This document shows, one piece after another, positions 10,637 through 27,943 of a DNA stretch of 64,000 bases. The notes beneath the pieces were generated by a model. That model was not told where the DNA came from. It saw only the letters and a program-made list of their open reading frames with translations, and did no database searches. Made by a program: the position numbers and the translations under genes. The stretch spans positions 2,530,146 to 2,594,145 of the forward strand of contig OZ250160.1 of the NCBI GenBank assembly GCA_965237835.1. The letters run 5' to 3'. Within the stretch, counting starts at the first letter, position 1. Every line of letters begins with the position of its first letter. Source of the stretch: Candidatus Poribacteria bacterium. GTDB taxonomy: Bacteria; Poribacteria; WGA-4E; WGA-3G.

Positions 10637-10910
10637 TATTTTTCATACTATGCACCCTTTCCGACCTAATACTGTGTCTCTATATTGTGAAAGGTGCCAT
10701 ATACCACTGTTTGGTCAATTCATGTCGGACTTTTGCGTAAATCCTATTATATAAGGAGTTTCAACTCTGGCTGTATTTTATTCTATTTTCCATTTGTTGT
10801 CAAATCTACTATGGATATTCAGTATCGTTAGGGATATGTGTATTGGTTAAATTATCCATGTATATCGCCGTATAAATCAATATTATCAAAAAAATATACG
10901 ATTACATGTC

Positions 10911-10929
10911 GGAATTGTCCCCAAATCTA
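10911..10929 (+). promoter_or_regulatory. Conserved upstream motif cGGAATTGTCCC-N-AAATCTA (candidate ECF-type promoter or operator)
   Basis: The same motif occurs at 14799-14819, 19611-19629 and 24121-24140, each directly upstream of a cassette gene (sigma or TPR-X). Confidence 0.35.
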
Positions 10930-10940
10930 CGTCATTATCA

Positions 10941-11712
10941 ATGAAGACAGTTAAAAATTTTTCTTGGAAGAGGGAAATCGAGGATGGTGCGCTGCATCGT
11001 CGGTTTTTGGAAACAGGCAGCGAAGCAGCACTGCGTTTGCTTATGCAGAAGTACTATAAGCCAATTTGTAGTCACGTTTTCGCGATCTTGAAAGATCATC
11101 AAGATGCAGATGAAATCACAAATGAAACCTTCCTCAAAGCCTTCAATAAGAGGGAAACGATCAAGTATCCTGATAAACTCGTGAGTTGGTTATATAAGAC
11201 CGCGAAAAATGCGGCGATTGAGCGATTAAGAGCCAGACAACGAGATGTTCACCAGATGCTCGATTTAGTCTCTCTTGATAATTTGGATGCTGAAAGAGAA
11301 GCTGCAGCCGCATCAATATTTGCGGCACAGCAGATTGAGACTGATCAATACTTGTTGACAAGTCTGCTGCGACTTCATAACGGAAAAGGATCGTGAGGTT
11401 GTAGAATACTTATTAGATGACCTAAAGCCGAAGCAGATTGCTGAAGTGATAGACTCCACACCGGAAGCAGTTCAGAAAAGATGGGAACGGATACTCAAGT
11501 GGTTAAGCCCGATTGCTCACCGATTAGACGAACTGCTTAATAACCTTCCGCCTCAAGAACGGAAAATAATGGAACGGTATTTAGATAATCAACCTCTTGA
11601 AGAGATTAGTGAAAAATTAGGTATCTCCCCGACTAATGTTAAAGCATGCGTGAAACGTGTGATGAAGCAGTGGAAGAAAACCACAAGGCAAACGCCACGA
11701 AACGGAGGATAA
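10941..11712 (+). pseudogene. ECF (sigma-70 family) sigma factor, split by an apparent +1 frameshift near 11375-11380
   Basis: Region 2 (ETFLKAF, KLVSWLYKTAKNAAIERLRARQR) lies in frame 0 and ends at 11396. A region-4 HTH (EISEKLGISPTNVKACVKRV) continues in another frame to 11712. Deleting one A in the A-run restores LRLHNGKDREVVEYLLDDL. Confidence 0.6.
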
Positions 11713-11713
11713 T

Positions 11714-12472
11714 ATGCTTCGCGACATCTGGACAAATAAATGGTTTATCGGTGGCTTTGGTTTTCTGATTGTTTTCGCGGTGCTGTGTTACTTCTGGTAC
11801 CAACACGATATTGCGTCATTCCAACAACAGTTATCGGCTACCGGTGATATTGTCTTTCAAGGGGATCTATCTCAAAAGGCACAAAAAACCGTTCAAACAG
11901 ACGTGCCGCTGATAGAATCTCTTGAATCTGTAGAAAATAGGTCTGAATCTGTTAGGGATACGTCGGTTCCCACAGAGAAGACAACAGAAAAAACCGACAC
12001 GTTTGAGATAAACACAAATTTAACTGCGGATGCTCCTATCTCTCCCTTTGGATTTGGTGCGTATCCTGAAGTTCCCGCTGATTATCCGTTTCAGGAACAA
12101 CTTTGGGATAATGCCACGCCAGAGCATGAGTTGTTAGTCCGAGTCGAAGTTAAGTTATGGAAACAAGGCACACAAACTAAAGGCTCTATGTTTGATCCTA
12201 ATAATGGTCTCATTTATCCATCTATTCCTGGTGTCCTTTACGTGCAATGGCGTTACATTGAAGAAGGAGACCCAGATTTAGTAGGGCAACGGTATGCCGG
12301 TAGAGTAAGCGGTGACGGAGATACTGCTAAAAAGTGGCAATCCTTATACCTTACTGACCGTATGTTTGAACGCACAGACGTAACGCATGACACTGAGGCA
12401 TCAGGTATAAAGATTTATGAGTACCCAGACGGGGGTATAGACCCCTACAAATTCCTCGATTTAACGAGGTAA
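11714..12472 (+). CDS. Cassette protein X1: N-terminal signal-anchor TM helix plus a conserved ~150-aa C-terminal domain of unknown function
   Basis: TM segment WFIGGFGFLIVFAVLCYFWY. The C-domain SPFGFGAYPEVPADYPFQE...YEYPDGGIDPYKFLDL is shared with 15254-16051, 19810-20568 and 24258-25397. Confidence 0.7.
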   Translation: MLRDIWTNKWFIGGFGFLIVFAVLCYFWYQHDIASFQQQLSATGDIVFQGDLSQKAQKTVQTDVPLIESLESVENRSESVRDTSVPTEKTTEKTDTFEINTNLTADAPISPFGFGAYPEVPADYPFQEQLWDNATPEHELLVRVEVKLWKQGTQTKGSMFDPNNGLIYPSIPGVLYVQWRYIEEGDPDLVGQRYAGRVSGDGDTAKKWQSLYLTDRMFERTDVTHDTEASGIKIYEYPDGGIDPYKFLDLTR

Positions 12473-12482
12473 GGAAAATAAA

Positions 12483-13256
12483 ATGAAATTGTATCGTGTT
12501 CTTTTACTAATTTTCTGTTCAGGCATCCTCTTCGTTGGTGTCGTTAGTGATATTTCAGCAGCAGGTTTTGATCGTGACGGTCCCTATGAAGCTTCTGTAG
12601 ATGCCCGTCGCTTTGGCGGAAATGAAAACAGATTACATGTCAATTTGTATGCAAGGGCTTCTAGTACTGACCGAGCGAGAAATGGTTACTTGAATATATT
12701 TCTTAAGATAACTAACGGATGGTCAGTAGATCCGGCTGTTACCCCTGTTGATAGTCACGTCTGGCTTTGGGATCACCGTGATTTTCAGTTTGAAGAAAAC
12801 GGAGGCTATGTTTATGCATATGCTTCTGGACAAGACACAGGGAGAGCCTGGTATACCGCCTACACTGACGACACTGCGGAGCCGATGCCTCCTCCTGATC
12901 CTCCACCCGCCACCAACCCCACCAACCCCACCAACCCCGAACCACAATTGGGCATATCCCCCGTAGATCCAGATGACACTCCTTATCCCGGCGAAGCACA
13001 TGAGTACAGACTTGTCACAGATGCACCTTATTACTATGTGTATTGGTATGTGAAGGCACCTTGGGAGACAAGTGAACGCGGATCATATATAGGGAGTGAC
13101 TCAGGTGACGGCACGACAACTGAAGCAACATTCAGTTACACGTTCCCGAGCGGTGCAATGCATACTGGAGATTTTCTGATAACAGCGGTCATTTACCGGT
13201 GGTCAGATATGTCTGAGTATGAGGAGACCTATACTGCGACTGTGTTGTTAGATTAA
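12483..13256 (+). CDS. Cassette protein Y1: secreted protein with a variable N-domain, a Pro-rich linker and a conserved C-terminal domain
   Basis: Signal peptide. Linker PMPPPDPPPATNPTNPTNPEPQLGISPVDPDD. The C-domain (...YYYVYWYVKAPWETSERG...YEETYTATVLLD) is shared with 16066-16836 and 20579-21358. RBS-coupled 10 bp after X1. Confidence 0.7.
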   Translation: MKLYRVLLLIFCSGILFVGVVSDISAAGFDRDGPYEASVDARRFGGNENRLHVNLYARASSTDRARNGYLNIFLKITNGWSVDPAVTPVDSHVWLWDHRDFQFEENGGYVYAYASGQDTGRAWYTAYTDDTAEPMPPPDPPPATNPTNPTNPEPQLGISPVDPDDTPYPGEAHEYRLVTDAPYYYVYWYVKAPWETSERGSYIGSDSGDGTTTEATFSYTFPSGAMHTGDFLITAVIYRWSDMSEYEETYTATVLLD

Positions 13257-13292
13257 AAATTATGTCACATTTATCAGTATGAATAACAATAG

Positions 13293-13330
13293 ACAGGTAA
13301 CTTTGCGGTTACCTGTCTTCTCTTTTTATC
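13293..13330 (+). terminator. Rho-independent terminator after Y1 (copies follow Y2 and Y3)
   Basis: acaggtaac-tttgc-ggttacctgt followed by cttctctttttat. Confidence 0.6.
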
Positions 13331-13338
13331 AGAAAAAG

Positions 13339-13367
13339 TTGACATGTAACATGTATACGCGTATATT
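13339..13367 (+). promoter_or_regulatory. Near-consensus sigma-70 promoter upstream of the WD40 gene
   Basis: TTGACA, 17-nt spacer, TATATT. Identical in the duplicated intergenic segments at 16919 and about 21437. Confidence 0.5.
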
Positions 13368-13544
13368 ATCTGAACCAGGATTTTCAGGATTATCAGATTT
13401 TCAGGATTATAGATACTTCCTCAAATGAACAAGGACTTTGTTGAGAAATATAGATTTGAAGATAATACTAGCAGAAGATAGCCATCCATCTAAAAGCATA
13501 CTAATCCTGATAATCCCATAATCCTGTCCATCCTGGTTCAGACA
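13368..13544. repeat. ~177-bp element bounded by ~40-bp imperfect inverted repeats (tctgaaccaggatt...aatcctggttcaga), MITE-like family 2, forming the 5' leader of the WD40 gene
   Basis: Left arm tctgaaccaggattttcaggattatcag, right arm ctaatcctgataatcccataatcctgtccatcctggttcaga. A complete copy lies at 34728-34852 and partial copies near 31716, 52640 and 55385. Confidence 0.5.
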
Positions 13545-13643
13545 ATCCGAGATTTAGACAGAACCTTTGACATTTAATCCAACACATAGTAGAATAAACA
13601 CAACGTTAATTGGTATTAGAACAGCACATAGGAGAACACACCC

Positions 13644-14753
13644 ATGAGAAACAGATTGTTTTCAATTTTTACAGCACTGTTTGTAGCACTCCCATTTATG
13701 ACCTGCAGTCTCCCATCAGGTTCATTGGAGGATCCGCTGCATGATCCACAGCAAGCCCCGCAGCAAGAGCATTTACCCGAAGGCGCGAAAGGGCGCATCA
13801 AGAAAGACAGGATCAATGATATAGCGTATTCACCAGACGGCACAAAGCTCGCTGTAGCAGGTGGTAGCGGTATTTGGCTCTACGATGCACAGACAGGTCA
13901 TGAACTTGTCCAATTCGCAGGACATACCGGTAAAGTCCACAACGTGGCATTTAGTCCGGATGGAAAGACTATCGTAAGTGCCGGTACCAGTTACGATCGG
14001 ACCATTCGTATATGGGATGTGAACACGGGAAGAAACCTACGAACATTCAAATATCAGGTCTTTGACGTTGCGTTTAGTCCGGATGGAAAGACGATCATAA
14101 GTGGCAGTCATGACAAAAACCTCTACTTATTGGATGCGGACACAGGTAAACTCCTACGCACCCTCTCTGGGCATACGGATTTTGTCTGGTACGTGGCGTT
14201 TAGTCCGGACGGAAAAACTATTGCAAGTCGCAGTCAAGACCAGACCATTTGTCTGTGGGATGCGGACATAGGTAAACTCCTACAAACAATCACATGGCAT
14301 TCGCATCTGCCCAAGCATCCTCTCAAGCATCCTCTCAATACCGTAATTTTTAGTCCTGATGGAAAGATGATCGCAAGTGTTGGTGATGACCAGACTATTT
14401 GGCTGTGGGATGTGAACACGGGAAAACAACTACGAACAATCGCAAGAAACACGTCTCCTCATCGTAAGAACTTGGCATTTAGTCCGGATGGAAGCATGAT
14501 TGCATGTAACAATTGGAAGGATATTGATCTGTGGGATGTGAACACGGGAAAACTCCTACGAACACTCACAGGGTATCGGGAGAATAACCCACCGCGTCGG
14601 GACCGGTTCAGCGGACATATTTTAGGATCCCCCTGGGTCTTTATGGTGGTGTTCAGTCCGGATGGAAAGACTATCGCAGGTGCCAGTGGGCATGGCGTCC
14701 ATCTGTGGGATGTGAACACGGGATACCTCCAAAAACTCATCAGTGGTTTTTGA
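13644..14753 (+). CDS. WD40 repeat beta-propeller protein with N-terminal secretion/lipoprotein-like signal (WD40-1)
   Basis: Repeated [21 protein letters not shown] WD40 units. Signal [17 protein letters not shown]. Confidence 0.85.
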   Translation: MRNRLFSIFTALFVALPFMTCSLPSGSLEDPLHDPQQAPQQEHLPEGAKGRIKKDRINDIAYSPDGTKLAVAGGSGIWLYDAQTGHELVQFAGHTGKVHNVAFSPDGKTIVSAGTSYDRTIRIWDVNTGRNLRTFKYQVFDVAFSPDGKTIISGSHDKNLYLLDADTGKLLRTLSGHTDFVWYVAFSPDGKTIASRSQDQTICLWDADIGKLLQTITWHSHLPKHPLKHPLNTVIFSPDGKMIASVGDDQTIWLWDVNTGKQLRTIARNTSPHRKNLAFSPDGSMIACNNWKDIDLWDVNTGKLLRTLTGYRENNPPRRDRFSGHILGSPWVFMVVFSPDGKTIAGASGHGVHLWDVNTGYLQKLISGF

Positions 14754-14935
14754 TACGACCGCGCTGCGGTCTGTTGTAAAATGCCAATTTTCTGTTAGCG
14801 GAATTGTCCCTTAAATCTATCTATAAGAGAAAACTCTCATAGAATAATAGCATCTGTTTGCAAGCATTCCTATCTGGTTTTGTGAATTAAATTCTAAACG
14901 TCCCTGTTAATTTCTACTTGGTAAGGAGAAAAATC

Positions 14936-16051
14936 ATGAAATTTGTCAACTTCTGTCTGTTTACTACTTTTGTTCTTACAACAGTAATGCAAATCGGATG
15001 TTTGTCCGGTGGTGCGATGGGTACTGCGGAAAAATTAAGTGAGACGAAAGACTATCGCGGTGCATTAGAAGTCTATCAAAATGTTGTAGATACCAAACCC
15101 GGTACTGCTGACGCGCGCGCAGCACAACTCGCAATAGGTGAACTCTACATTGAGCATATACATTAACCCGAACAAGGGATTGAAACTTATGAAGCGGTCA
15201 TTGCTGAAGCACCCACAAGCGATGAAGCTGCAGAGGCACACTATCGTCTCGGGATGCACGCCTATCGCCAAAAAGACTATGACGCAGCGCAAACCCAATT
15301 TGGTACTATTGTTAACCATTTTTCGCATCTGGAATTGAGTCACAACGCACAACTGATGTCGGCAAAAAGTTATGAGGATGGGCAAAAATTTGAACAAGCT
15401 GTAGAAGTTTATGATAATTTTGCGAACCGCAACCCACAGAGTAAACGCGCTGCACAAGCCCTCGCCAATAAAGCACGAATACAACGCAAATTCCTTAAAG
15501 ATGATGATGAAGCGATACGTACCCTGCAATTATTAGTCATAAAATACGGCAAAATTAAGAGCGCAGAATCATACGTTAAAGAAGCTAAAAAAGTATTAAT
15601 TGAATTCAATGTCTCTCCTTTTGGATTTGGTGCATATCCTGAAGTTCCCGCCGATTATCCATTTCAGGAGCGACTTTGGGATAATGCCACGCCAGAGAAT
15701 GAGTTGTTAATCCGAGTTCAGATTAAGTTATGGAATCAAGGAACACGAACTAAAGGTGCAGCGTTTAGTAGTAATGGTCTCGTTTATCCCACAATTTCTG
15801 GTGTCCTTTACGTAGAATGGCGTTACATTGAAGAAGGTGACCCAGATTTAGTAGGGCGACGGTATGCCGGTACAGTAAGCGGTGACGGAGAGACTGCTAA
15901 AAAGTGGCGATCTTTATACCTTACTGACCGTATGTTTGAGCGCACAGACGTAACGCATGACACTAAGGTATCAGGTATAAAGATTTATGAGTATCCAGAT
16001 GGAGGAATAGACCCCTACAAATTCCTCGATTTACCGAGGCAAGGAGAATAA
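14936..16051 (+). pseudogene. Cassette protein X2: TPR lipoprotein carrying the conserved X C-domain, interrupted by an in-frame TAA at 15164-15166
   Basis: The intact paralog at 24258-25397 reads CAA (Q) where this copy reads TAA. Lipobox MQIGC. TPR-like helices. The downstream ORF 15254-16051 carries the X C-domain. Confidence 0.6.
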
Positions 16052-16065
16052 AATGAAACTGTCCA

Positions 16066-16836
16066 GTGTTTTTTTACTTTTCATGCGTTGTCCTCTTCGT
16101 TGTTGCAGTTGGTGATATTTCAGCAGCTGTTGGACAGGACGGTCCCTATACTGCTGAAGCATACGGCTATCGCGTGGGCGGAATTAATAATGACAGATTA
16201 AATGTCAGTTTGTCTGGTAGGGCTAGTAGTACTGTGTTTGGAAGTGACGGTTATTATAAAATAGAGTTATTTAAAGAACTACCCAGCGGATGGAGTATAA
16301 TTGCTGAACAGGACGAGGTTGATACACATGGTGGTCAAATTGATGGCCACTTCTATGTAAACCTAGACTTAGATCTTCCTAGGGAAGAATACGCATGCTT
16401 TATTGACGTTGATGTTAGTGGTAGAGCGACAAATGGAAGGTACTGTTTTGCGGATGCTGATGAATATGTGGGACCGATGCCTCCACCTCCCCCTAATCCT
16501 CAACTCATCATCGACCCCGAACCACAAGTGGGCATATCCTCCGTAGATCCAGATGACACTCCTTATCCGGGGAACACATACGAGTTCAGACTTATCACAG
16601 ATGTCCATTATTATTGGGTGGACTGGTATGTGAAAGCACCCTGGGAGACAAGTGAAAGGGGAACACATATAGAAGGTCAATTAGGAGATGGCGAGACAAC
16701 TGAATCTACATTCAGTTACACGTTCCCGAGCGGTGCAATGCATACTGGAGATTTTCTGATAACAGCGGTCATTTACCGGTGGTCAGATATGTCTGAGTAT
16801 GAGGAGACCTATACTGCGACTGTGTTGTTAGATTAA
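16066..16836 (+). CDS. Cassette protein Y2 (secreted; variable N-domain, conserved C-domain); the native ATG at 16053 is out of frame through a T7 homopolymer, so the ORF opens at a GTG
   Basis: The ATG at 16053 reads into a TGA. A T7 run at 16068-16074 sits in the signal-peptide codons. The C-terminal 100 aa are almost identical to Y1 and Y3. Confidence 0.55.
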   Translation: MFFYFSCVVLFVVAVGDISAAVGQDGPYTAEAYGYRVGGINNDRLNVSLSGRASSTVFGSDGYYKIELFKELPSGWSIIAEQDEVDTHGGQIDGHFYVNLDLDLPREEYACFIDVDVSGRATNGRYCFADADEYVGPMPPPPPNPQLIIDPEPQVGISSVDPDDTPYPGNTYEFRLITDVHYYWVDWYVKAPWETSERGTHIEGQLGDGETTESTFSYTFPSGAMHTGDFLITAVIYRWSDMSEYEETYTATVLLD

Positions 16837-17223
16837 AAATTATGTCACATTTATCAGTATGAATAACAATAGACAGGTAACTTTGCGGTTACCTGTCTTC
16901 TCTTTTTATCAGAAAAAGTTGACATGTAACATGTATACGCGTATATTATCTGAACCAGGATTTTCAGGATTATCAGATTTTCAGGATTATAGATACTTCC
17001 TCAAATGAACAAGGACTTTGTTGAGAAATATAGATTTGAAGATAATACTAGCAGAAGATAGCCATCCATCTAAAAGCATACTAATCCTGATAATCCCATA
17101 ATCCTGTCCATCCTGGTTCAGACAATCCGAGATTTAGACAGAACCTTTGACATTTAATCCAACACATAGTAGAATAAACACAACGTTAATTGGTATTAGA
17201 ACAGCACATAGGAGAACACACCC

Positions 17224-18333
17224 ATGAGAAACAGATTGTTTTCAATTTTTACAGCACTGTTTGTAGCACTCCCATTTATGACCTGCAGTCTCCCATCAGG
17301 TTCATTGGAGGATCCGCTGCATGATCCACAGCAAGCCCCGCAGCAAGAGCATTTACCCGAAGGCGCGAAAGGGCGCATCAAGAAAGACAGGATCAATGAT
17401 ATAGCGTATTCACCAGACGGCACGAAGCTCGCGGTGGCAGGTGGTAGCGGTATTTGGCTCTATGATGCACAGACAGGTCATGAACTTGTCCAATTCGCAG
17501 GACATACCGGTAAAGTCCACAACGTGGCATTTAGTCCGGATGGAAAGACTATCGTAAGTGCCGGTACCAGTTACGATCGGACCATTCGTATATGGGATGT
17601 GAACACGGGAAGAAACCTACGAACATTCAAGTATCAGGTCTTTGACGTTGCGTTTAGTCCGGATGGAAAGACGATCATAAGTGGCAGTCATGACAAAAAC
17701 CTCTACTTATTGGATGCGGACACAGGTAAACTCCTACGCACCCTCTCTGGGCATACGGATTTTGTCTGGTACGTGGCGTTTAGTCCGGACGGAAAAACTA
17801 TCGCAAGTCGCAGTCAGGACAAGACCATTTGTCTGTGGGATGCGGACATAGGTAAACTCCTACAAACAATCACATGGCATTCGCATCTGCCCAAGCATCC
17901 TCACAAGCATCCTCTCAATACCGTAATTTTTAGTCCTGATGGAAAGATGATCGCAAGTGTTGGTGATGACCAGACTATTTGGCTGTGGGATGTGAACACG
18001 GGAAAACAACTACGAACAATCGCAAGAAACACGTCTCCTTATCGTAAGAACTTGGCATTTAGTCCGGATGGAAGCATGATTGCATGTAACAATTGGAAGG
18101 ATATTGATCTGTGGGATGTGAACACGGGAAAACAACTACGAACACTCACAGGGTATCGGGAGAATAACCCATCGCATCGGGACCGGTTCAGCGGACATAT
18201 TTTAGGAAACCCCAGCATCTTTACGGTGGTGTTTAGTCCGGATGGAAAGACTATCGCAGGTGCCAATAGGCGTGGCGTCCATCTGTGGGATGTGAACACG
18301 GGGTACCTCCGAAAACTCATCAGTGGTTTTTGA
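17224..18333 (+). CDS. WD40 repeat lipoprotein-like protein (WD40-2), near-identical to WD40-1
   Basis: 369 aa with only a few substitutions relative to 13644-14753. The upstream 387 bp is identical to 13257-13643. Confidence 0.85.
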
Positions 18334-18351
18334 TACGACCGCGCTGCGGTA

Positions 18352-18579
18352 TTAGGTATTTAGAACAGCACAAAAGGAGAACACACCCATGAAAAATAGC
18401 ACGAAACCAACTTTGTTGACATTTCCAACGCAAACCCTCCTCTTTGAGCCATTCCCAGATCGTTGAATCAGAAGATGAATACCCGTTTTCTCTGTAAACG
18501 CAGTTTGCAATCGTCCCAGTGTCCATACCTCAAATGGATAACCGAGACTACGCGGTTTTTGCAACGCTAAATCTATCAT
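18352..18579 (-). pseudogene. Remnant of an IS630-family transposase N-terminal HTH region
   Basis: [24 protein letters not shown]...RSGNGSKRR resembles the winged-HTH region of IS630/Tc1 transposases. Only ~75 aa remain. Confidence 0.35.
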
Positions 18580-19640
18580 ACCATATTAACTTGATTAGAA
18601 GTCTTTTGATATAGCACACGGTTGCGAGGCACGGGGACCTCGCGCTACAGATCGGGTTAATTTGGTATCAGTTGACCGCGCACCTCCGTTGAATGAATAC
18701 GCGGTTTACCGCTTTTCGGTTTATCAGCAGGTTTTCCTTTGATACCTTTTTCGTTCACGCAGCAGATATACTTGATTTGAAACCCGCTTGTTTTGCTGCT
18801 TGGGCAGCTGTCAGGGTGTTGTCATCAATCATGCTGACAATCAACCTGGCTCTCTGCACAGTCCGATAACATCTCCTCTATTTATAGCCCTCCGATCACT
18901 GTGTATTTATACCATTCTAAGTGATTATGTTGTGTTAGTTCGTAGGTTCGGTAGAGCGGTAACGAAACCATAAGTGTCAATTTAGTAGTCTTCCAACCCC
19001 GGTAGGTGCGGTTTCCTAACCGCACTATAACCGTCACCAAGTCTAACCGTAGATAAAGGGATACCACTCTCCATTGATAGAATACGAGGCTTCACTAGGT
19101 ATCTCATCACCATTAGCGAGTCCGGAAATGGGTTGGGTTAGTAAACAGACAGCTGCTAGTGCAAAAAGTATGTAGGTGCAAAAGGGGGCATGATATGAAA
19201 AAAGTTGGAAATGTTGAATGTCCACGGTTGAACGTAGGTGTGTAATTATCGGATATTTGCTATCTGGAATACGCAGGGCTGCATTTTTTGACACTGGGAA
19301 GTAATATGGGGGGGCTGGTTGTTTTGAAAAAGTCGTTGCGAGGCGTTTTTGACAGGAATTCGTTATATCGTAATGTTGGTCTGTTCAGATGTGCGATACG
19401 CGCATATGTGCAGCAGTCGCACACGTGCGCAGCACTCGGTGTTCATCTTGCCATATTATTAAAAGGTGTCAGGGATATCGTGCCCTAATATTTTATCCAT
19501 CTTTCAACGAACATTCTAACAGTATCGTTAGGGATATGTGTATTGGTTAAATTATCCATGTATATCGCCGTATAAATCAATATTATCAAAAAAATATACG
19601 ATTACATGTCGGAATTGTCCCCAAATCTACGTCATTATCA

Positions 19641-19808
19641 ATGAAGACAGTTAAAAATTTTTATAGGGAACGGTATTTAGACAATCAACCTCTCAAAGAG
19701 ATTAGTGAAAAATTGGGTATTTCTCTGACTAATGTTGAAGTATGCGTGAAACGTGTGATAAAGCAGTGGAAGAAATCCACAAGGCAAACGCCACGAAACG
19801 GAGGATAA
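19641..19808 (+). pseudogene. In-frame internal-deletion remnant of the ECF sigma gene (55-aa ORF retaining only the region-4 HTH)
   Basis: The first 7 codons (MKTVKNF) are fused to YRERYLDNQPLKEISEKLGISLTNVEVCVKRV. The upstream 140 bp is identical to 10800-10940. Confidence 0.5.
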
Positions 19809-19809
19809 T

Positions 19810-20568
19810 ATGCTTCGCGACATTTGGACAAATAAATGGTTTATCGGTGGCTTCGGTTTTCTGATTGTTTTCTCGGTGCTGTGTTACTTCTGGTACCAAC
19901 ACGATATAGCGTCATTCCAACAACAGTTATCGGCTACCGGTGATATTGTCTTTCAAGGGGATCTATCTCAAAAGGCACAAAAAACCGTTCAAACAGACGT
20001 GCCGCTGATAGAATCTCTTGAATCTGTAGAAAATAGGTCTGAATCTGTTAGGGATACGTCGGTTCCCACAGAGAAGACAACAGAAAAAACCGACACGTTT
20101 GAGATAAACACAAAATTAACTGCGGATGCTCCTACTTCTCCCTTTGGATTTGGTGCATATCCTGAAGTTCCCGCTGATTATCCGTTTCAGGAACGACTTT
20201 GGGATAACGCCACGCCAGAGCATGAGTTGTTAGTCCGAGTCGAAGTTAAGTTATGGAAACAAGGCACACAAACTAAAGGCTCTATGTTTGATACTAATAA
20301 TGGTCTCATTTATCCGACTATTCCTGGTGTCCTTTACGTGAAATGGCGTTACATTGAAGAAGGAGACCCAGATTTAGTAGGGCGAAGGTATGCCGGTAGA
20401 GTAAGCGGTGACGGAGATACTGCTAAAAAGTGGCAATCCTTATACCTTACTGACCGTATGTTTGAACGCACAGACGTAACGCATGACACTGAGGCATCAG
20501 GTATAAAGATTTATGAGTACCCAGACGGGGGTATAGACCCCTACAAATTCCTCGATTTAACGAGGTAA
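19810..20568 (+). CDS. Cassette protein X3 (TM anchor plus conserved X C-domain), near-identical to X1
   Basis: 252 aa with a handful of substitutions relative to 11714-12472. Confidence 0.7.
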   Translation: MLRDIWTNKWFIGGFGFLIVFSVLCYFWYQHDIASFQQQLSATGDIVFQGDLSQKAQKTVQTDVPLIESLESVENRSESVRDTSVPTEKTTEKTDTFEINTKLTADAPTSPFGFGAYPEVPADYPFQERLWDNATPEHELLVRVEVKLWKQGTQTKGSMFDTNNGLIYPTIPGVLYVKWRYIEEGDPDLVGRRYAGRVSGDGDTAKKWQSLYLTDRMFERTDVTHDTEASGIKIYEYPDGGIDPYKFLDLTR

Positions 20569-20578
20569 GGAAAATAAA

Positions 20579-21358
20579 ATGAAATTGTATCGTGTTCTTT
20601 TACTTTTTTTCTTTTCATGCGCTATCCTCTTCGTTGGTGCAGTTAGTGATATTTCAGCAGATGCTCAAGTTAACGGTCCCTATACTGCTGAAGCATACGT
20701 TTATCGTGTTAACACAGCTAATGTCATATTGACCGCTAAAGCTAGTAGTACGCCGCGGGCAAAAAACGGTAAGTATAAATTAGTTGCAAATAAAGATTCA
20801 GATTTAAACAGACAGGTCGAAACTTGGGATCCACTTGAAGAACAAACCCACCTGGATACACATGGTGCTCCAATTGATGGTGAATTCTCCGAAGAGCTAA
20901 AAAGAAATTATCCTTCGACAGAATACGGATACCAGGCTAAATCACTTGTTGATGGACAATTGACAGATGGAGCTTTTCGTGCTGCTTTTGCTGAAGATAA
21001 AGTGGGCGAGATACCTATTCTTGAACCCACCCCCGTCCCTCAACCACAATTGGGCATATCCCCCGTAGATCCAGATGACACTCCTTATCCCGGCGAAGCA
21101 CATGAGTACAGACTTGTCACAGAGGCACCTTATTACTATGTGAATTGGTATGTGAAGGCACCTTGGGAGACAAGTGAACGCGGATCATATATAGGGAGTG
21201 ACTCAGGTGACGGCACGACAACTGAATCTACATTCAGTTACACGTTCCCGAGCGGTGCAATGCATACTGGAGATTTTCTGATAACAGCGGTCATTTACCG
21301 GTGGTCAGATATGTCTGAGTATGAGGAGACTTATACTGCGACTGTGTCATTAGATTAA
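20579..21358 (+). CDS. Cassette protein Y3 (secreted; divergent N-domain, conserved C-domain)
   Basis: Signal peptide. N-domain only distantly similar to Y1 and Y2 (DGPYTAEAY.YRV...ASST). C-terminal ~105 aa conserved. Confidence 0.7.
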   Translation: MKLYRVLLLFFFSCAILFVGAVSDISADAQVNGPYTAEAYVYRVNTANVILTAKASSTPRAKNGKYKLVANKDSDLNRQVETWDPLEEQTHLDTHGAPIDGEFSEELKRNYPSTEYGYQAKSLVDGQLTDGAFRAAFAEDKVGEIPILEPTPVPQPQLGISPVDPDDTPYPGEAHEYRLVTEAPYYYVNWYVKAPWETSERGSYIGSDSGDGTTTESTFSYTFPSGAMHTGDFLITAVIYRWSDMSEYEETYTATVSLD

Positions 21359-21768
21359 AATTACGTCGCATTTATCATTGTGAATAACAACAGACAGGTA
21401 TCCTTGAGGTTACCTGTCTTCTCTTTTTATCAGAAAAAGTTGACATGTAACATGTATACGCGTATATTATCTGAACCAGGATTCTCAAGATTACCAGATT
21501 TTCAGGATTATAGATACTTCCTCAAATGAACAAGGACTTTGTCGAGAAATATAGATTTGAAGATAATACTAACTAGCAGAAGATAGCCATCCATCTAAAA
21601 GCATACTAATCCTGTCCATCCTGGTTCAGACAATCCGAGATTCAGACAGAACCTTTGACATTTAATCCAACATATAGTAGAATAAACGCAACATTAAAAT
21701 GATTTATATTTAGCCCGCGTCTTTCTATCCAGATAGGTATTTAGCACAGCACACAGGAGAACACACCC

Positions 21769-22917
21769 ATGAGAAACAAATTGTTTTCAATTTTGACAGC
21801 ACTGTTTGTAGCACTCCCATTTATGACCTGCAGTCTTCCGCCAGGTTCACTGGAGGAACCGCTACATGATCCACAGCAGGAACCGCAGCAGAAACCGCAG
21901 CAAGAGCATTTACCCAATGGCGTGAAAGTGCCCCCCGGGAGAGTATGGGTTATGGATGTAAAATTTTCACCCGATGGCACATGTCTCGCGGTGGCGGGTG
22001 GCATCGGCATTTTGCTTTACGATACACAGACTTATGACAAACCGGACCTACTTAAAGGGCATACGGGTTATATATGGTGCATAGCGTTTCGTCCGGATGG
22101 AAAGGTGCTCGCAAGTGCAGGTCAGGACCGGACTGTCCGTTTGTGGGATGTGAACACGAGACAACAAATCAGAACATTTGGAATAAACTTGTATCCTACG
22201 TCAAACATAACATTTAGTCCGGATGGCAAGACACTCGCAAGCGCAACTGGAGGTAATAATACGAAGGATGTTATGAACGTCTATCTATGGGATGCAGACA
22301 CAGGTAAACGCCTACGCACACTCTCTGGGCATACGAATATAGTCAACGATGTGTCGTTTCGTCCGGATGGAAATATGCTCGCAAGTGCGTGTGACGACCA
22401 AACCGTCCGTCTGTGGGATGTGGAGACGGGACAACATATCAGAACACTATCTGGGCATACGAAGATGGTCGAGAGCGTTGCATTTAGTCCGGATGGAAAT
22501 ATGCTCGTAAGTGGAGGTGGGTATCATAATGCTGTCGCTCTGTGGAATGCGAACACGGGACAACAAATCAGAGCACTCACTATCAATGCACACTTGGAAC
22601 AACAAATCAATGTCCACATGGAAAAATATAGCAGACACATAGGCGCAAAAGGGGGGAGCAAGATTAGTGGAGAAGATGTGGCGTTCAGTCCGGATGGAAA
22701 CACTATCGCAAGTACCGGTCCTTCTTCCATCCATCTGTGGGATATGGGCTCGGGACAACACCACAGAATACTCCACAACGGAAAGTATCCTGATATAGCA
22801 ACAGATGTAGCGTTCAGTCCGGATGGAAACACTATCGCGTGTGTAGGTTGGTATGAAGCACATGTGTGGGATGTGGAGACGGGAAAACTCATCCGAATAC
22901 TCATGGGCAAACATTGA
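21769..22917 (+). CDS. WD40 repeat lipoprotein-like protein (WD40-3, divergent paralog)
   Basis: Same signal and leader as the other WD40 genes. WD40 units FSPDG....LWDV. Confidence 0.85.
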   Translation: MRNKLFSILTALFVALPFMTCSLPPGSLEEPLHDPQQEPQQKPQQEHLPNGVKVPPGRVWVMDVKFSPDGTCLAVAGGIGILLYDTQTYDKPDLLKGHTGYIWCIAFRPDGKVLASAGQDRTVRLWDVNTRQQIRTFGINLYPTSNITFSPDGKTLASATGGNNTKDVMNVYLWDADTGKRLRTLSGHTNIVNDVSFRPDGNMLASACDDQTVRLWDVETGQHIRTLSGHTKMVESVAFSPDGNMLVSGGGYHNAVALWNANTGQQIRALTINAHLEQQINVHMEKYSRHIGAKGGSKISGEDVAFSPDGNTIASTGPSSIHLWDMGSGQHHRILHNGKYPDIATDVAFSPDGNTIACVGWYEAHVWDVETGKLIRILMGKH

Positions 22918-22971
22918 TACTACCGTTCTGTGGTATTAGGTATTTAGAACAGCACACAGGAGAACACACCC

Positions 22972-24075
22972 ATGAGAAACAGATTGTTTTCAATTTTCAC
23001 AGCACTGTTTATAAAACTAACATTTCTGAGCTGCAGTCTCCCACCCGGTTCATTGGAGGATCCGCTGCATGATCCACAGCAAGCCCCGCAGCAAGAGCAT
23101 TTACCCGAAGGCGCGAAAGGGCGCATCAAGAAAGACAGGATCCATGATATAGCGTATTCACCAGATGGCACGAAGCTAGCGGTGGCAGGTGGTAGCGGTA
23201 TTTGGCTCTACGATGCACAGACAGGTCATGAACTTGTCCAATTCGCAGGACATACCTATACAGTCCACAACGTGGCATTTCGTCCAGACGGAAAGACTAT
23301 CGTAAGTGCCGCTATCGGTTACGATCAGACCATTCGTATATGGGATGTGAACACGGGAAGAAACCTACGAACATTCAGGTATGTGGCCTTTGACGTCGCG
23401 TTTAGCCCGGATGGAAAGATGATCGTAAGTGGCGGTCATGACAAAAACCTCTATTTACTGGATGCGGACACAGGTAAACTCGTACGCACCCTCTCTGGGC
23501 ATACGGATTTTGTCTGGAGCGTGGCGTTTAGTCCGGATGGAAAAACTATCGCAAGTCGCAGTCAGGACAAGACCATTCGTCTGTGGGATGCGAACACAGG
23601 AAAACTCCTGCGAACACTCACAATGGATACGCATCTGCCCAAGTATTTTCTCAATATCGTAATTTTTAGTCCTGATGGAAAAGTGATCGCAAGTGTTGGT
23701 AATGACCGGACCATTTGTCTGTGGGATGCTAACACGGGAAAACGCCTACGAACAATCGCAAGAAATACGACTCCTTTTCATAAAAACTTGGCATTTAGTC
23801 CGGATGGAAGCATGATCGCATGCAACAATTGGCTCGATATTGACCTATGGGATGTGAACAACGGAAAACTCCTACGAACACTCACAGGGTATAGGGAGAA
23901 TAACCCATCGCGTCGGGAGTGGAGGAGAGGACATATTGGACTTATAGGACCCCCCGGAATCTTTACGGTGGTGTTCAGTCCGGATGGAAAGACTATCGCA
24001 GGTGCCAGTGTGCATGGCGTCCATCTGTGGGATGTGAACACGGGGTACCTCCGAAAACTCATCAGTGGTTTTTGA
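22972..24075 (+). CDS. WD40 repeat lipoprotein-like protein (WD40-4)
   Basis: Closest to WD40-1 and WD40-2. The downstream 165 bp is identical to 14754-14917. Confidence 0.85.
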   Translation: MRNRLFSIFTALFIKLTFLSCSLPPGSLEDPLHDPQQAPQQEHLPEGAKGRIKKDRIHDIAYSPDGTKLAVAGGSGIWLYDAQTGHELVQFAGHTYTVHNVAFRPDGKTIVSAAIGYDQTIRIWDVNTGRNLRTFRYVAFDVAFSPDGKMIVSGGHDKNLYLLDADTGKLVRTLSGHTDFVWSVAFSPDGKTIASRSQDKTIRLWDANTGKLLRTLTMDTHLPKYFLNIVIFSPDGKVIASVGNDRTICLWDANTGKRLRTIARNTTPFHKNLAFSPDGSMIACNNWLDIDLWDVNNGKLLRTLTGYRENNPSRREWRRGHIGLIGPPGIFTVVFSPDGKTIAGASVHGVHLWDVNTGYLRKLISGF

Positions 24076-24257
24076 TACGACCGCGCTGCGGTCTGTTGTA
24101 AAATGCCAATTTTCTGTTAGCGGAATTGTCCCTTAAATCTATCTATAAGAGAAAACTCTCATAGAATAATAGCATCTGTTTGCAAGCATTCCTATCTGGT
24201 TTTGTGAATTAAATTCTAAACGTCCCTGTTAATTTCTACTTGGTAAGGAGAAAAATC

Positions 24258-25397
24258 ATGAAATTTGTCAACTTCTGTCTGTTTACTACTTTTGTTCTTA
24301 TAACAGTAATGCAAATCGGATGTTTGTCCGGTGGTGCGATGGGTACTGCGGAAAAATTAAGTGAGACGAAAGACTATCGCGGTGCATTAGAAGTCTATCA
24401 AAATGTTGTAGATACCAAACCCGGTACTGCTGACGCGCGCGCAGCACAACTCGCAATAGGTGAACTCTACATTGAGCATATACATCAACCCGAACAAGGG
24501 ATTGAAACTTATGAAGCGGTCATTGCTGAAGCACCCACAAGCGATGAAGCTGCAGAGGCACACTATCGTCTCGGGATGCACGCCTATCGCCAAAAAGACT
24601 ATGACGCAGCGCAAACCCAATTTGGTACTATTGTTAACCAATTTTCGCATCTGGAATTGAGTCACAACGCACAACTGATGTCGGCAAAAAGTTATGAGGA
24701 CGGGCAAAAATTTGAACAAGCTGTAGAAGTTTATGATAATTTTGCGAACCGCAACCCACAGAGTAAACGCGCTGCACAAGCCCTCGCCAATAAAGCGCGA
24801 ATACAACGCAAATTCCTTAAAGATGATGATGAAGCGATACGTACCCTGCAATCATTAGTCATAAAATACGGCAAAATTAAGAGCGCAGAATCATACGTTA
24901 AAGAAGCTAAAAAAGTATTAATTGAATTCAATGTCTCTCCTTTTGGATTTGGTGCATATCCTGAAGTTCCCGCCGATTATCCATTTCAGGAGCGACTTTG
25001 GGATAATGCCACGCCAGAGCATGAGTTGTTAGTCCGAGTCGAAGTTAAGTTATGGAATCAAGGAACACGAACTAAAGGTGCAGCGTTTAGTAGTAATGGT
25101 CTCGTTTATCCCACAATTTCTGGTGTCCTTTACGTAGAATGGCGTTACATTGAAGAAGGTGACCCAGATTTAGTAGGGCAACGGTATGCGGGACGTGTAA
25201 TGGGTGACGGAGATACTGCTAAAAAGTGGCGATCTTTATACCTTACTGACCGTATGTTTGAGCGCACAGACGTAACGCATGACACTGAGGTATCAGGTAT
25301 AAAGATTTATGAGTATCCAGATGGAGGAATAGACCCCTACAAATTCCTCGATTTACCGAGGTTTGATGTTGAATTGAGAGAAGGAGGCAAAAACTAA
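24258..25397 (+). CDS. Cassette protein X4: intact TPR lipoprotein fused to the conserved X C-domain
   Basis: RBS AAGGAG 7 nt upstream of the ATG at 24258. Lipobox IGC. TPR-like repeats. C-domain SPFGFGAYPEVPADYPFQER... Confidence 0.75.
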   Translation: MKFVNFCLFTTFVLITVMQIGCLSGGAMGTAEKLSETKDYRGALEVYQNVVDTKPGTADARAAQLAIGELYIEHIHQPEQGIETYEAVIAEAPTSDEAAEAHYRLGMHAYRQKDYDAAQTQFGTIVNQFSHLELSHNAQLMSAKSYEDGQKFEQAVEVYDNFANRNPQSKRAAQALANKARIQRKFLKDDDEAIRTLQSLVIKYGKIKSAESYVKEAKKVLIEFNVSPFGFGAYPEVPADYPFQERLWDNATPEHELLVRVEVKLWNQGTRTKGAAFSSNGLVYPTISGVLYVEWRYIEEGDPDLVGQRYAGRVMGDGDTAKKWRSLYLTDRMFERTDVTHDTEVSGIKIYEYPDGGIDPYKFLDLPRFDVELREGGKN

Positions 25398-25414
25398 ACG
25401 TCTCTGAAATTACA

Positions 25415-27943
25415 CTAAATTCCATCAGGGATAACGGTATACCTAAACCAACACCGCGTCCCATCTGTTTTTAACGTGATAGCACCCAGTTGATCTGTTC
25501 GTAGTTGAACACAATTACGTTCCCGATACCGTTCTATGACATCCGCATGCGGAAATTGATACCGATTCCCTAAGCCGAGTGAAAAGATAGCATAACGCGG
25601 TTGAACAGCATCTAAAAACTGTGCACTGCTTGAGGTTCGGCTGCCATGATGCGGCACCTTCAGAATCTCTGCCCTTAAATCTTGCTGAGATGCAATTAAC
25701 CGAGTCTCACCCTTGAACTCAATATCACCAGTAAACAGAATATCCACCTCGCCATAACTAACCTTCATGACAAGCGAATCATTGTTCTTATCATCGTCTA
25801 TAAGATTAGTGGACGCAGCATCAATCGGATGTAGCAGGTTAAGCGTTGCAGTTGGCGTCAATTCAATTTTTCCTGCATAAGGAAAAGCATAAGGGATGTC
25901 TCGCGCTTCGGCAATACTACGTAATTGCTGATGGGTTTGGGAATCAAGTTTCATGTCAGGTATGCCGAGAATTCGCTTCACTCTAAAGTTTCGCAGGATG
26001 TACGCAAGTCCACCCCCGTGGTCAATGTCCGGATGTGTGAGCACCACTAAATCAAGTTCCCGAATGCTGTTCGCATCAAGATAAGGTTCAATAACCCGTT
26101 CACCTACGTCAAATTCTACCTCTTTCCGCCGCTTTTCATCGTAATATGAACGTTGGATACCGCCGTCAATTAACATTGTCCGTCTATCGGGAAATCTGAT
26201 GATAGCCGCATCCCCTTGACCAACATCAAGCGTAATCACTTCAAGCAGGCGACCCTCTTCATGAAACGCACTGTCCCACACCCAGACCGCCATCACAGAT
26301 AGTCCGATGAGACTTGCCATTTTCCACTGCTTATATACGTATCGCCAATGTGTGATGCCTAAGCAGATAGCTATGTAAATAATGATGAGACCAAACGTTG
26401 GCGGTGCTACTTTCATTATACCCCATTTCTGTCCAAATATTCCGATGAGTTCCAAAAAGATGAAGATAATCGCGTGGTTAACCATCGCAAGGAGTTTCGC
26501 GAGCGGCAGCCAGATAAACCCTACACAGACCGATGCCATGCCCACACCAACGATTAACGAAACAAGTCCAACTGCAAATGGACCGACTATTAGTCCGAGC
26601 GGATATGCCCTATAAAAATGAAAAGCGATGAGAAGTCCGGTGCCGAGCTGCGCAGCAAATGTCACGAGATAGGATAGCACCAACCATTTTAGTGCGGTAT
26701 TCTTGAGTTTGACCAATCTACTTATGTCATCAGATTCACCGGTATCCCACAGTCTCCGCAAAGGTTTCTCCATTTTTGGAACAAAATAGACAATGGAGAC
26801 AACAGCAACAAATGAGAGTTGAAAACCGGCATCCCATAGCTGCATCGGGTTAAAAATGAGTAATGCTAAAGCAGCAACAGCGAGCAAGTTGAAGATGTCT
26901 GCATCGCGATCAATGATAGTTGCAAACAGAAATAGGGTTGCCATGAGCGAAGCACGGAAGACAGAGGGGCGGAAACCGACCAAACACGCATAAATTAGAA
27001 CTGCCCCGATTGTTAGCAGACAAACCACCTTCTTGGGCATGCGAAATATTGACAAACCAAGATAACAGAACATCGCAATGAGTCCGACATGAAGACCCGA
27101 CACCGCTAGCACATGGAAAGTGCCACTGTTACGAAAGATGTCCAAAGTCTCTGATGGCACATCTCCCCGTTTCCCGAGCAGAATCCCTTTTAGCAATTGC
27201 GCATGTAACGAGTTTTCTCTTGTAGGCGGAGTTTGTAACCCCGATGTGTCTTCTGTAGGCGGGGTTTCCAATCCCGATGTGTCTTCTGTAGGCGGGGTTT
27301 GTAACCCTGAATATGCACCATCAATAATCCGTTCAGTCCGAAGGCGAAGTGCTTCTATCCACCGCAGCGGTGGAAATCCTGATTGCTTACCTAAGCGAAG
27401 CAGCCCTTGGTGATAGATTATCCCTGATACATTTTGCCGTGCAAGATAGGATCGATAGTCAAAACCGCCAGGATTTCTTTGTGCTTGAGGCTGACGCAGC
27501 ACACCCATCAGTGTTAGGTGTTTACCGTAACGTAGCGGCATCAATTCCTGGAACCTCACCAAGAACTTTGCTGACACTGTTTGCGCTGGATCAGACAGAA
27601 GCTGAATCTGCCCTACGGCATAGCATGCTTCCCACGCCTCCCCGCGTTCTGGTTGATACACGGTGTCGCCTATAAAACTAACGGGTTGGTCATAAAAATG
27701 GTGTGGAATTGTCGGGACGGTAGCGATTTCCAATCTCAGCATTCCACTCGCAAAGATGGCAATATGTAGCAACACATAACACAGATATTTTGCCCGACCC
27801 CTCGCCAAAGTGCTACCGATAAAGCATATCAACACGGACAACCATAGCCACAAGGGTGGAATTGAGGTATATCCACCCGTTAAGATGCCGAGTAGGAAAG
27901 GAATGAGGAAGTAGAACGCAGGACGCGGTTTGAGTTTTATCAT
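25415..27943 (-). CDS. comEC: DNA internalization competence protein ComEC/Rec2 (polytopic membrane domain plus C-terminal metallo-beta-lactamase domain)
   Basis: Multiple TM helices. MBL motif LTHPDIDHGGG. An internal 3x tandem peptide repeat (TPPTEDTSGL). Confidence 0.85.
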   Translation of the reverse strand: MIKLKPRPAFYFLIPFLLGILTGGYTSIPPLWLWLSVLICFIGSTLARGRAKYLCYVLLHIAIFASGMLRLEIATVPTIPHHFYDQPVSFIGDTVYQPERGEAWEACYAVGQIQLLSDPAQTVSAKFLVRFQELMPLRYGKHLTLMGVLRQPQAQRNPGGFDYRSYLARQNVSGIIYHQGLLRLGKQSGFPPLRWIEALRLRTERIIDGAYSGLQTPPTEDTSGLETPPTEDTSGLQTPPTRENSLHAQLLKGILLGKRGDVPSETLDIFRNSGTFHVLAVSGLHVGLIAMFCYLGLSIFRMPKKVVCLLTIGAVLIYACLVGFRPSVFRASLMATLFLFATIIDRDADIFNLLAVAALALLIFNPMQLWDAGFQLSFVAVVSIVYFVPKMEKPLRRLWDTGESDDISRLVKLKNTALKWLVLSYLVTFAAQLGTGLLIAFHFYRAYPLGLIVGPFAVGLVSLIVGVGMASVCVGFIWLPLAKLLAMVNHAIIFIFLELIGIFGQKWGIMKVAPPTFGLIIIYIAICLGITHWRYVYKQWKMASLIGLSVMAVWVWDSAFHEEGRLLEVITLDVGQGDAAIIRFPDRRTMLIDGGIQRSYYDEKRRKEVEFDVGERVIEPYLDANSIRELDLVVLTHPDIDHGGGLAYILRNFRVKRILGIPDMKLDSQTHQQLRSIAEARDIPYAFPYAGKIELTPTATLNLLHPIDAASTNLIDDDKNNDSLVMKVSYGEVDILFTGDIEFKGETRLIASQQDLRAEILKVPHHGSRTSSSAQFLDAVQPRYAIFSLGLGNRYQFPHADVIERYRERNCVQLRTDQLGAITLKTDGTRCWFRYTVIPDGI

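Follow-up and report, generated by a model that had tools for sequence, protein, structure and literature searches.

In this study, a protein domain shared by four genes of a poribacterial locus was investigated, and it is an undescribed, Poribacteria-restricted family and a candidate new fold, with no detectable relative among solved structures. The locus lies in a stretch of 64,000 nucleotides from a Candidatus Poribacteria bacterium (contig OZ250160.1, positions 2,530,146 to 2,594,145), hereafter the window, and window coordinates below refer to this whole 64-kb stretch. We refer to the four proteins as X1 to X4, to their common C-terminal domain as Xc, and to the secreted partner proteins as Y. 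A six-frame profile scan of the 64 kb detected exactly four copies of Xc and three of Y. Xc may act outside the cytoplasm as a docking module without enzymatic activity, to which the immunoglobulin (Ig)-like Y protein expressed with it would be tethered, a reading of its function that we prefer tentatively and with clear reservations.

Sequence and predicted fold of the Xc domain

The first-pass annotation of this DNA had described a shared block of about 150 amino acids (aa) at the end of the four X proteins, and this block is real. It covers about 143 aa, from SPFGFG to GGIDPYKFLDL, is C-terminal in X1 to X4, which are all plus-strand open reading frames (ORFs), and its four copies are mutually 85-97% identical. 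The top homolog outside the window was recovered at E 3e-74, far beyond chance. That annotation did not recognise the domain, and its novelty is borne out by our searches, since Xc gave no match in Pfam-A (2025), 0 families in NCBIfam (2026) and 0 matches in PADLOC, while X1 returned DUF4131 alone, on its transmembrane region and at E 0.12. A profile search of PDB sequences with Xc reached a best E of 0.11, with none significant, and a fold search with the Xc model found no match among solved structures.

The AlphaFold2 model of Xc, obtained from 24 homologs (predicted local distance difference test 90.6, predicted template-modelling score 0.82), displays in order an irregular but ordered N-terminal segment, a helix at residues 27-41, four to five antiparallel strands, a helix at residues 93-103, a last strand and a conserved C-terminal segment. 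In the predicted fold, a single long helix packs on a 4-5-stranded antiparallel sheet, and Gly/Pro/aromatic-rich terminal segments frame it. Among 147 diverse representatives, no more than three polar residues are near-invariant, namely E30, R34 (100%) and K38, the other highly conserved positions being Gly, Pro or aromatic, and no constellation of Cys, His, Ser or Asp was seen in the conservation of these sequences. Because no catalytic residue constellation is present, Xc appears to be a binding or structural module and not an enzyme. Alpha+beta(4) periplasmic domains of the cystatin/NTF2/VirB8/PepSY-like kind are among the closest known systems. Lineage-specific orphan families are numerous, and Xc stands out among them in being large, well structured, encoded in tight cassettes and experimentally tractable; it offers a new Pfam-type family, a candidate new fold and a phylum marker.

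Distribution and architectures of the Xc family

A word-indexed search disclosed 39 Xc homologs, and a profile search over 1.84e9 cluster representatives (50% identity clusters) raised this to 540 clusters at E <= 1e-3, or 443 at E <= 1e-10. When each GTDB species was scanned through a single genome, 334 Xc stretches were confirmed, and 80 of these were retained as loci. All of the 80 that bear a taxonomic name belong to Candidatus Poribacteria, and a few are labelled just 'uncultured bacterium'; the viral contigs searched for Xc held none. The family is large and, as far as seen, confined to one phylum. Several Xc matches per genome were observed, and some 16-kb loci carry 6-8 copies (L056, L075; L-numbers denote the Poribacteria loci compared and P-numbers the Xc family proteins). 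Cassettes of X and Y occur in tandem arrays in L056, L073 and L075.

About 95% of Xc members consist of a membrane anchor, an acidic linker and Xc. An N-terminal hydrophobic anchor was noticed in 112 of the 116 full-length representatives (225-290 aa), and the linker, with a mean of about 79 aa, is rich in E, T, A, D, S and P and carries a net charge of -0.1 per residue. X1 (11714-12472, plus strand; Xc 12041-12469) and X3 (19810-20568, plus strand; Xc 20137-20565, 96.5% identical to that of X1) are of this anchored form, and run from the start MLRDIWTNKW through a hydrophobic segment and a Glu/Thr/Ser-rich linker into Xc. X4 (24240-25397, plus strand; Xc 24936-25361) displays the second form intact, in which a signal peptide ending at a conserved Cys is followed by tetratricopeptide repeats (TPR; TPR_6 1.9e-17) and then by Xc. 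X2 (14918-16051, plus strand; Xc 15614-16039) is built in the same manner, but it is interrupted by an in-frame TAA, which corrects the first description.

The two N-terminal architectures noted at first are supported; TPR plus Xc was also found in P0041 and is conserved in at least 15 Poribacteria loci beyond the window. The further claim that X2 and X4 are TPR lipoproteins holds for the TPR part, whereas lipoprotein status is only probable. The Cys context of the TPR form is conserved (M-Q-I-G-C-L-S-G-G, with K-I-G-C and Q-F-G-C in orthologs), but position -3 of the lipobox is Q or K, which is non-canonical when set against [LVI][ASTVI][GAS]C. Xc is nearly always C-terminal, and the minor architectures are all exported. 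Besides TPR plus Xc, they comprise an anchor with CarboxypepD_reg, a C-type lectin and Xc (P0099, L057, L082), TPR with a redoxin and Xc (P0133), a natural fusion of TPR, Xc and WD40 (P0042), and a signal peptide with Xc and an STT3-like periplasmic domain (P0082, which is L064 213-1658). The C-terminal 300 aa of the 481-aa P0082 were considered as a Y-like part, and this was rejected, as they represent the domain that an STT3-like protein has in the periplasm.

Gene order and the pairing of X with Y

Y appears to consist of two beta-sandwich domains. Y1 (12483-13256, plus strand), which follows X1, contains a signal peptide, a variable, probably beta-sandwich N-domain, a Pro linker and a conserved PKD/Ig-like C-domain; Y2 (16066-16836, plus strand) has an N-domain divergent from that of Y1 and a nearly identical C-domain, and Y3 (20579-21358, plus strand) follows X3. 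Neighbouring genes were counted across 77 loci, in which the high-identity subfamily is termed core. Of the 11 anchored X genes in the core, 10 have Y as the next gene, and the median gap is 10 nt. Among 75 distant anchored paralogs, 46 precede either Y (13) or a different small protein with a signal peptide (33), the median gaps being 13-14 nt. The core order of a sigma factor of the extracytoplasmic function (ECF) type, anchored X, Y, one to three WD40 genes and the TPR-Xc gene recurs in many Poribacteria loci, for example L001/L008, L006, L015, L017, L020, L022 and L026. A sigma gene stands directly 5' of the anchored X in at least nine core loci, and across the wider family most members lack a sigma gene in their vicinity.

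The TPR form behaves differently. In the loci outside the window, Y was found 3' of it in 0 of 15 cases and WD40 5' of it in 14 of 15. Within the window, the cluster ends with X4, and no Y lies 3' of this gene; the next gene, on the opposite strand, is a ComEC homolog (25415-27943, minus strand). The first-pass statement that the domain always stands directly upstream of a Y gene therefore fails; the window has only three Y genes, and the apparent rule stems from local amplification. The functional X-Y pairing that had been proposed is retained for the anchored form and dropped for the TPR form, the adjacency of X2 and Y2 being a product of recombination. The ancestral locus is made of two units, ECF sigma-X-Y followed by WD40-TPR-Xc.

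The signal peptides and C-domains of Y1 to Y3 are nearly identical, and their N-domains are strongly divergent. In one pairwise comparison, made with L006 and therefore noisy, X showed a ratio of nonsynonymous to synonymous substitutions (dN/dS) of 0.21 and Xc one of 0.36, and in Y the ratio was 0.14 over the C-domain and 1.29 over the N-domain. Xc is under purifying selection, and the divergence of the Y N-domain in this one comparison suggests diversifying selection or cassette exchange. The downstream proteins other than Y fall into three further families, and profile-profile comparison links these weakly with one another and with the N-domain of Y (hhalign probability 74-93%).

Sigma factor, promoters and transcription units

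The ECF sigma gene 5' of X1 (10941-11712, plus strand; Sigma70_r2 2.9e-12, Sigma70_r4_2 4.6e-12) is frameshifted here, and the start codon of X1 lies 1 nt past its stop. Sigma regions 2 and 4 are both present in the window copy in spite of the frameshift, with region 2 at 10941-11396 and an extra sigma4-like helix-turn-helix (HTH) at 11446-11712 (plus strand), and the intact ortholog of L001 (5235-5999, 254 aa) scores 101.5 bits with TIGR02937 against a cut-off of 42.9. The C-terminal extension of this sigma factor, of about 65 aa, is unusual, as it is a second sigma-70 region-4-type HTH (Sigma70_r4_2 4.6e-12).

Directly 5' of the sigma gene lies the ECF-type promoter-like motif GTCGGAAT-N14-ACGT (10908-10932, plus strand); the window contains two occurrences of it (10908 and 19608), where 0.07 would be expected. 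In the form (A)TGTCGGAAT-N14-ACGT it stands directly 5' of sigma in eight genomes, namely the window and L001, L006, L010, L011, L012, L018 and L021. ECF promoters follow a GGAAC...CGT pattern, and because the motif resembles it, we read it as probably an autoregulated ECF promoter. The motif is so near the annotated ATG of sigma that either the transcript is nearly leaderless or the true start is further downstream.

A terminator-like hairpin of the intrinsic type, with a 12-bp stem and a T run, follows Y1 (13291-13318, plus strand), Y2 (16871-16898), Y3 (21392-21419) and the Y gene of L006. The first WD40 gene, WD40a, is preceded at 13339-13595 (plus strand) by two near-consensus sigma70-type promoters, TTGACA-17-TATATT and TTGACA-17-TAGAAT, with 11/12 matches each, and the pair is also found before WD40b and WD40c and in L006. 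With a terminator after Y and sigma70-type promoters before WD40, the locus is most simply read as two transcription units, sigma-X-Y and WD40-TPRXc.

Other members of the family stand behind other regulators. X paralogs are located behind sigma54 enhancer-binding proteins in L059 (2449-3480), L070 (6375-7241) and L078 (5828-7285), and two of these three activators have no regulatory domain, as in PspF. A sigma54-type motif, GGCAY-N5-TTGC, was found within 300 nt 5' of 9 of 107 X genes (loci L034, L041, L043, L059, L073 and L080) against 0.9% of background windows, and in L002 an X paralog lies behind an XRE regulator. Moreover, one subfamily of X with Y-like partners adjoins proteins of 933-965 aa in which an ECF sigma (regions 2 and 4) at the N-terminus is joined to a BNR/sortilin-type beta-propeller (L033 5602-8499, L035 2254-5088, L065 6296-9193, L072 9799-12600 and L081 9255-12152). 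A literature search on Poribacteria together with sigma factor or ECF found nothing.

Local amplification and decay of the locus

The nearest genome available, L006, is the Candidatus Poribacteria metagenome-assembled genome OZ244616.1, which is collinear with the window at 93-97% DNA identity and harbors a single sigma-X-Y-WD40-TPRXc set, with one anchored X and one TPR form. Compared with it, the window has about 7 kb extra (16039-22939). In the window, Y1 is followed by WD40a, a beta-propeller protein with a signal peptide (13644-14753, plus strand; WD40 2e-49), Y2 by the near-identical WD40b (17224-18333, plus strand), and Y3 by the divergent WD40c (21769-22917, plus strand; WD40 2e-50) and by WD40d (22972-24075, plus strand), which is collinear with the WD40 gene of L006. 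X1c-Y1-WD40a and X2c-Y2-WD40b, where c denotes the Xc part, are linked by direct repeats spaced about 3.58 kb apart. The promoter region of sigma (10820-10967) is repeated at 19520-19667, where it runs straight into the final 140 nt of sigma, so that a remnant ORF of 55 codons (19641-19808, plus strand) joins the first seven codons of sigma in frame with its last 48, which encode the extra HTH. This remnant retains its promoter motif (19608-19632) and the 1-nt spacing to X3.

The junction that sets Y behind the TPR form, as X2-Y2, falls inside Xc, and for this reason we attribute the adjacency to unequal recombination between the Xc of an anchored gene and that of a TPR gene. In a neighbour-joining tree of Xc, the TPR-form domains are polyphyletic, and their identity to the anchored Xc with which they share a locus is 85-90% in the window/L006 lineage and 69-71% in L020/L022. 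The tree and these within-locus identities point to gene conversion. Judged from the sequences, the four copies in the window are the outcome of unequal recombination and gene conversion between Xc repeats, in a recent local amplification. The idea of domain shuffling onto two anchors, taken as four independent events, is rejected, for one locus was amplified and L006 has one set. The locus illustrates clearly that repeats of a domain can promote gene amplification in place and lead inference from gene context astray.

The amplified locus also bears marks of decay. X2 carries a nonsense change from CAA to TAA at 15164-15166 (compare X4 24486-24488), which leaves ORFs at 14918-15166 and 15254-16051, and the sigma gene of the window, set beside those of L006 and L001, has an insertion of 1 nt near 11385 and a deletion of 9 nt. 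Unless this frameshift and the X2 stop are assembly errors, the sequence indicates that the amplified locus is decaying. About 1.5 kb of debris separates WD40b from the X3 region. Fragments of an IS630-family transposase lie between the amplified copies (18320-18580, minus strand), and in L001 an IS630-type element (9739-10622) interrupts the TPR-Xc gene, which is left as separate ORFs of 230 aa for the TPR part and 125 aa for Xc.

Proposed function and alternative explanations

In the mechanism that we tentatively prefer, the N-terminal signal-anchor and the acidic, disordered linker of about 80 residues of the dominant form would hold Xc at the outer face of the cytoplasmic membrane, with the N-terminus inside and the C-terminus outside. 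There Xc would dock a secreted beta-sandwich protein of the Ig/PKD-like kind, from the Y or Y-like families, whose gene would be translationally coupled to X, so that the cassette would form a pair of a conserved tether and a variable ligand. The oldest cassette would be co-transcribed with its dedicated ECF sigma, in the order sigma-X-Y up to the terminator. A separate unit with a housekeeping promoter would supply one or more WD40 propeller proteins together with the CpoB/BamD-like TPR (lipo)protein, and the TPR-Xc protein would present the same docking surface from a second anchor, beside the propellers, possibly in a complex with them.

Several observations weigh against tethering of Y. 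No secreted-protein gene lies 3' of 24 of the 75 distant anchored paralogs, and the TPR form has a Y neighbour nowhere but in this window. The Xc domains of X1 and X3 are nearly identical, yet the N-domains of Y1 and Y3 are very different; if Xc binds Y, it would need a conserved feature such as the C-domain, and the distant Y-like partners have no Y C-domain. Lastly, the fusions of Xc with a lectin and with the C-domain of an STT3-like protein, as well as the glycan genes nearby, suit a glycan-related role equally well.

This leads to the alternative which survives best, unlikely though we consider it: Xc would be an anchor that binds to a non-protein component of the envelope, such as peptidoglycan, capsule or another glycan, or the glycan of a glycoprotein, and so localises any module fused to it, and Y would be mere co-expressed cargo. 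The position of Xc at the C-terminus of unrelated exported modules (TPR, C-type lectin, redoxin) and its conserved surface, which is aromatic/Gly/Pro-rich, fit such an anchor, and some X paralogs adjoin a DegT sugar aminotransferase, sulfatases or Wzi. In addition to the fusion in P0082/L064, homologs of STT3/PglB-like oligosaccharyltransferases were noticed within 8 kb of X genes in six further loci, as a raw count (L042 5554-7632, L063 9887-12295, L044 2197-4617, L055 3253-5397, L051 9556-11948 and L011 13006-15045). These homologs score about 40-44 bits with Pfam STT3, and WSYG replaces WWDYG in them. On the other side, the fold search against solved structures gave no likeness to known carbohydrate- or peptidoglycan-binding folds, and the window holds no STT3-like gene. 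N-glycosylation of the linkers, an idea taken from the STT3-like neighbours, is unsupported, as the linkers contain 75 N-x-S/T sequons against 66.5 +/- 7.1 in shuffles and 14 D/E-x-N-x-S/T sequons against 13.2.

Ranking behind it, and in our judgement improbable, is the explanation that X is an unconventional anti-sigma factor or sensor of the adjacent ECF sigma, in which Xc would be the periplasmic sensor and Y a periplasmic co-regulator, in the manner of RseA and RseB. The locus resembles RpoE-RseA-RseB in its order of sigma, single-pass membrane protein and exported protein, in its spacing suited to translational coupling and in a promoter that looks autoregulated. X occupies the canonical anti-sigma position, directly 3' of an ECF sigma, in the window and at least nine orthologous loci; sigma-X-Y forms one unit between the ECF-type promoter and the terminator; another X subfamily adjoins the sigma-propeller fusions; and the sigma factor carries its unusual extra HTH. 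However, X has only about 9-10 residues (MLRDIWTNK(W)) before its membrane anchor, with no upstream extension of the ORF, whose start is the first ATG after a stop. This is far under any known anti-sigma domain (at least about 30-80 aa), and no Pfam anti-sigma match was obtained. Unlike RseA, the majority of family members are encoded away from any sigma gene, and the paralogs behind sigma54 activators or an XRE regulator look like a regulated output and not a regulator. Again, the sigma factor has a C-terminal extension of its own, and sigmas with such extensions, as in the ECF41, ECF42 and ECF44 groups, generally have no anti-sigmas.

Returning to the tether, it may belong to a wider, Poribacteria-specific display system in the cell envelope, which we regard as a rather doubtful extension. 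Here the new-fold Xc would tether a fast-diversifying, Ig-like Y. A genome would have several such cassettes, in places over ten, and every one would answer to a separate regulator of the alternative-sigma kind (ECF sigma, sigma54 with its bacterial enhancer-binding protein, or sigma-propeller fusion), and the repertoire would vary the cell surface toward the sponge host or phages. In a bolder variant, X may regulate the ECF sigma through the extra sigma4-like domain of the latter, although X has no anti-sigma domain in the cytoplasm. Sponges harbor few symbionts as abundant as the uncultivated Poribacteria, and what the envelope of these bacteria displays is central to their persistence inside an animal that eats bacteria. 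Xc is under purifying selection and occurs in conserved two-gene cassettes under alternative sigma factors, and pairs of Xc and Y together with a defined ECF promoter motif give a concrete experimental handle on the envelope biology and host interaction of this uncultured lineage. TPR and WD40 proteins, the classes to which the neighbours of X and Y belong, are abundant in Poribacteria single-cell genomes and often have signal peptides or membrane helices (PMC3909097). Xc and Y differ from these eukaryote-like repeat proteins of sponge symbionts, for they are neither repeats nor eukaryote-like and are unmentioned in that report.

Still more doubtful is a bridge across the envelope, in which Xc would homo- or hetero-oligomerise, so that the inner-membrane X and the TPR-Xc (lipo)protein would join in a manner partly like TolA/CpoB/TolB. 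It draws on the presence of two differently anchored Xc proteins in one conserved locus, on the identity of the paired domains, 85-90% in the window/L006 lineage and 69-71% in L020 and L022, and on the CpoB/YbgF- and BamD-like TPR part with a beta-propeller protein always adjacent. X recalls TonB and TolA in its short cytoplasmic N-terminus, one membrane helix, long low-complexity linker and small alpha+beta C-terminal domain, and the propeller and TPR neighbours recall TolB and CpoB/YbgF. But about 95% of the family are anchored forms with no TPR-Xc partner nearby, and gene conversion between adjacent repeats requires no selection. Xc has no TonB_C or TolA match in sequence or fold; the linker of X is acidic where theirs are Pro/Lys-rich; its conserved partner is a secreted Ig-like protein; and neither Tol/Exb motor genes nor ExbBD/TolQR occur at the locus. 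The likeness to CpoB/YbgF and BamD concerns only the N-terminal part of X2 and X4, where about 200 aa form an exported module of TPRs (TIGR02795 1.4e-21, TIGR03302 4.7e-13). X4 scores under both cut-offs (77.3 against 90.1 and 49.2 against 81.4), Xc is added at the C-terminus, and the neighbours are WD40 and ComEC genes with no Tol-Pal or Bam context.

A toxin/immunity-like pair, also raised in the first-pass annotation, or an anti-phage defence pair could be read from the two-gene cassettes, tandem arrays and hypervariable partner, but it is very improbable, as both partners have export signals, no toxin, nuclease or peptidase domain was found, X and Y had no PADLOC matches, no viral homologs were detected among the contigs searched (a phage origin being rejected likewise), and there is no secretion-system or Rhs context.

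Minor features of the window

The intergenic spacers between Y and WD40, of about 390 nt, are 94-100% conserved between copies and contain short direct repeats (ggattatcagattttcaggattat; 13470-13560 and 21480-21640). The Rfam search of 10000-26000, which covers these spacers, matched no RNA family. A short tandem peptide repeat (GLQTPPTEDTS, GLETPPTEDTS, GLQTPPT...) was also observed in a loop region of the ComEC homolog.

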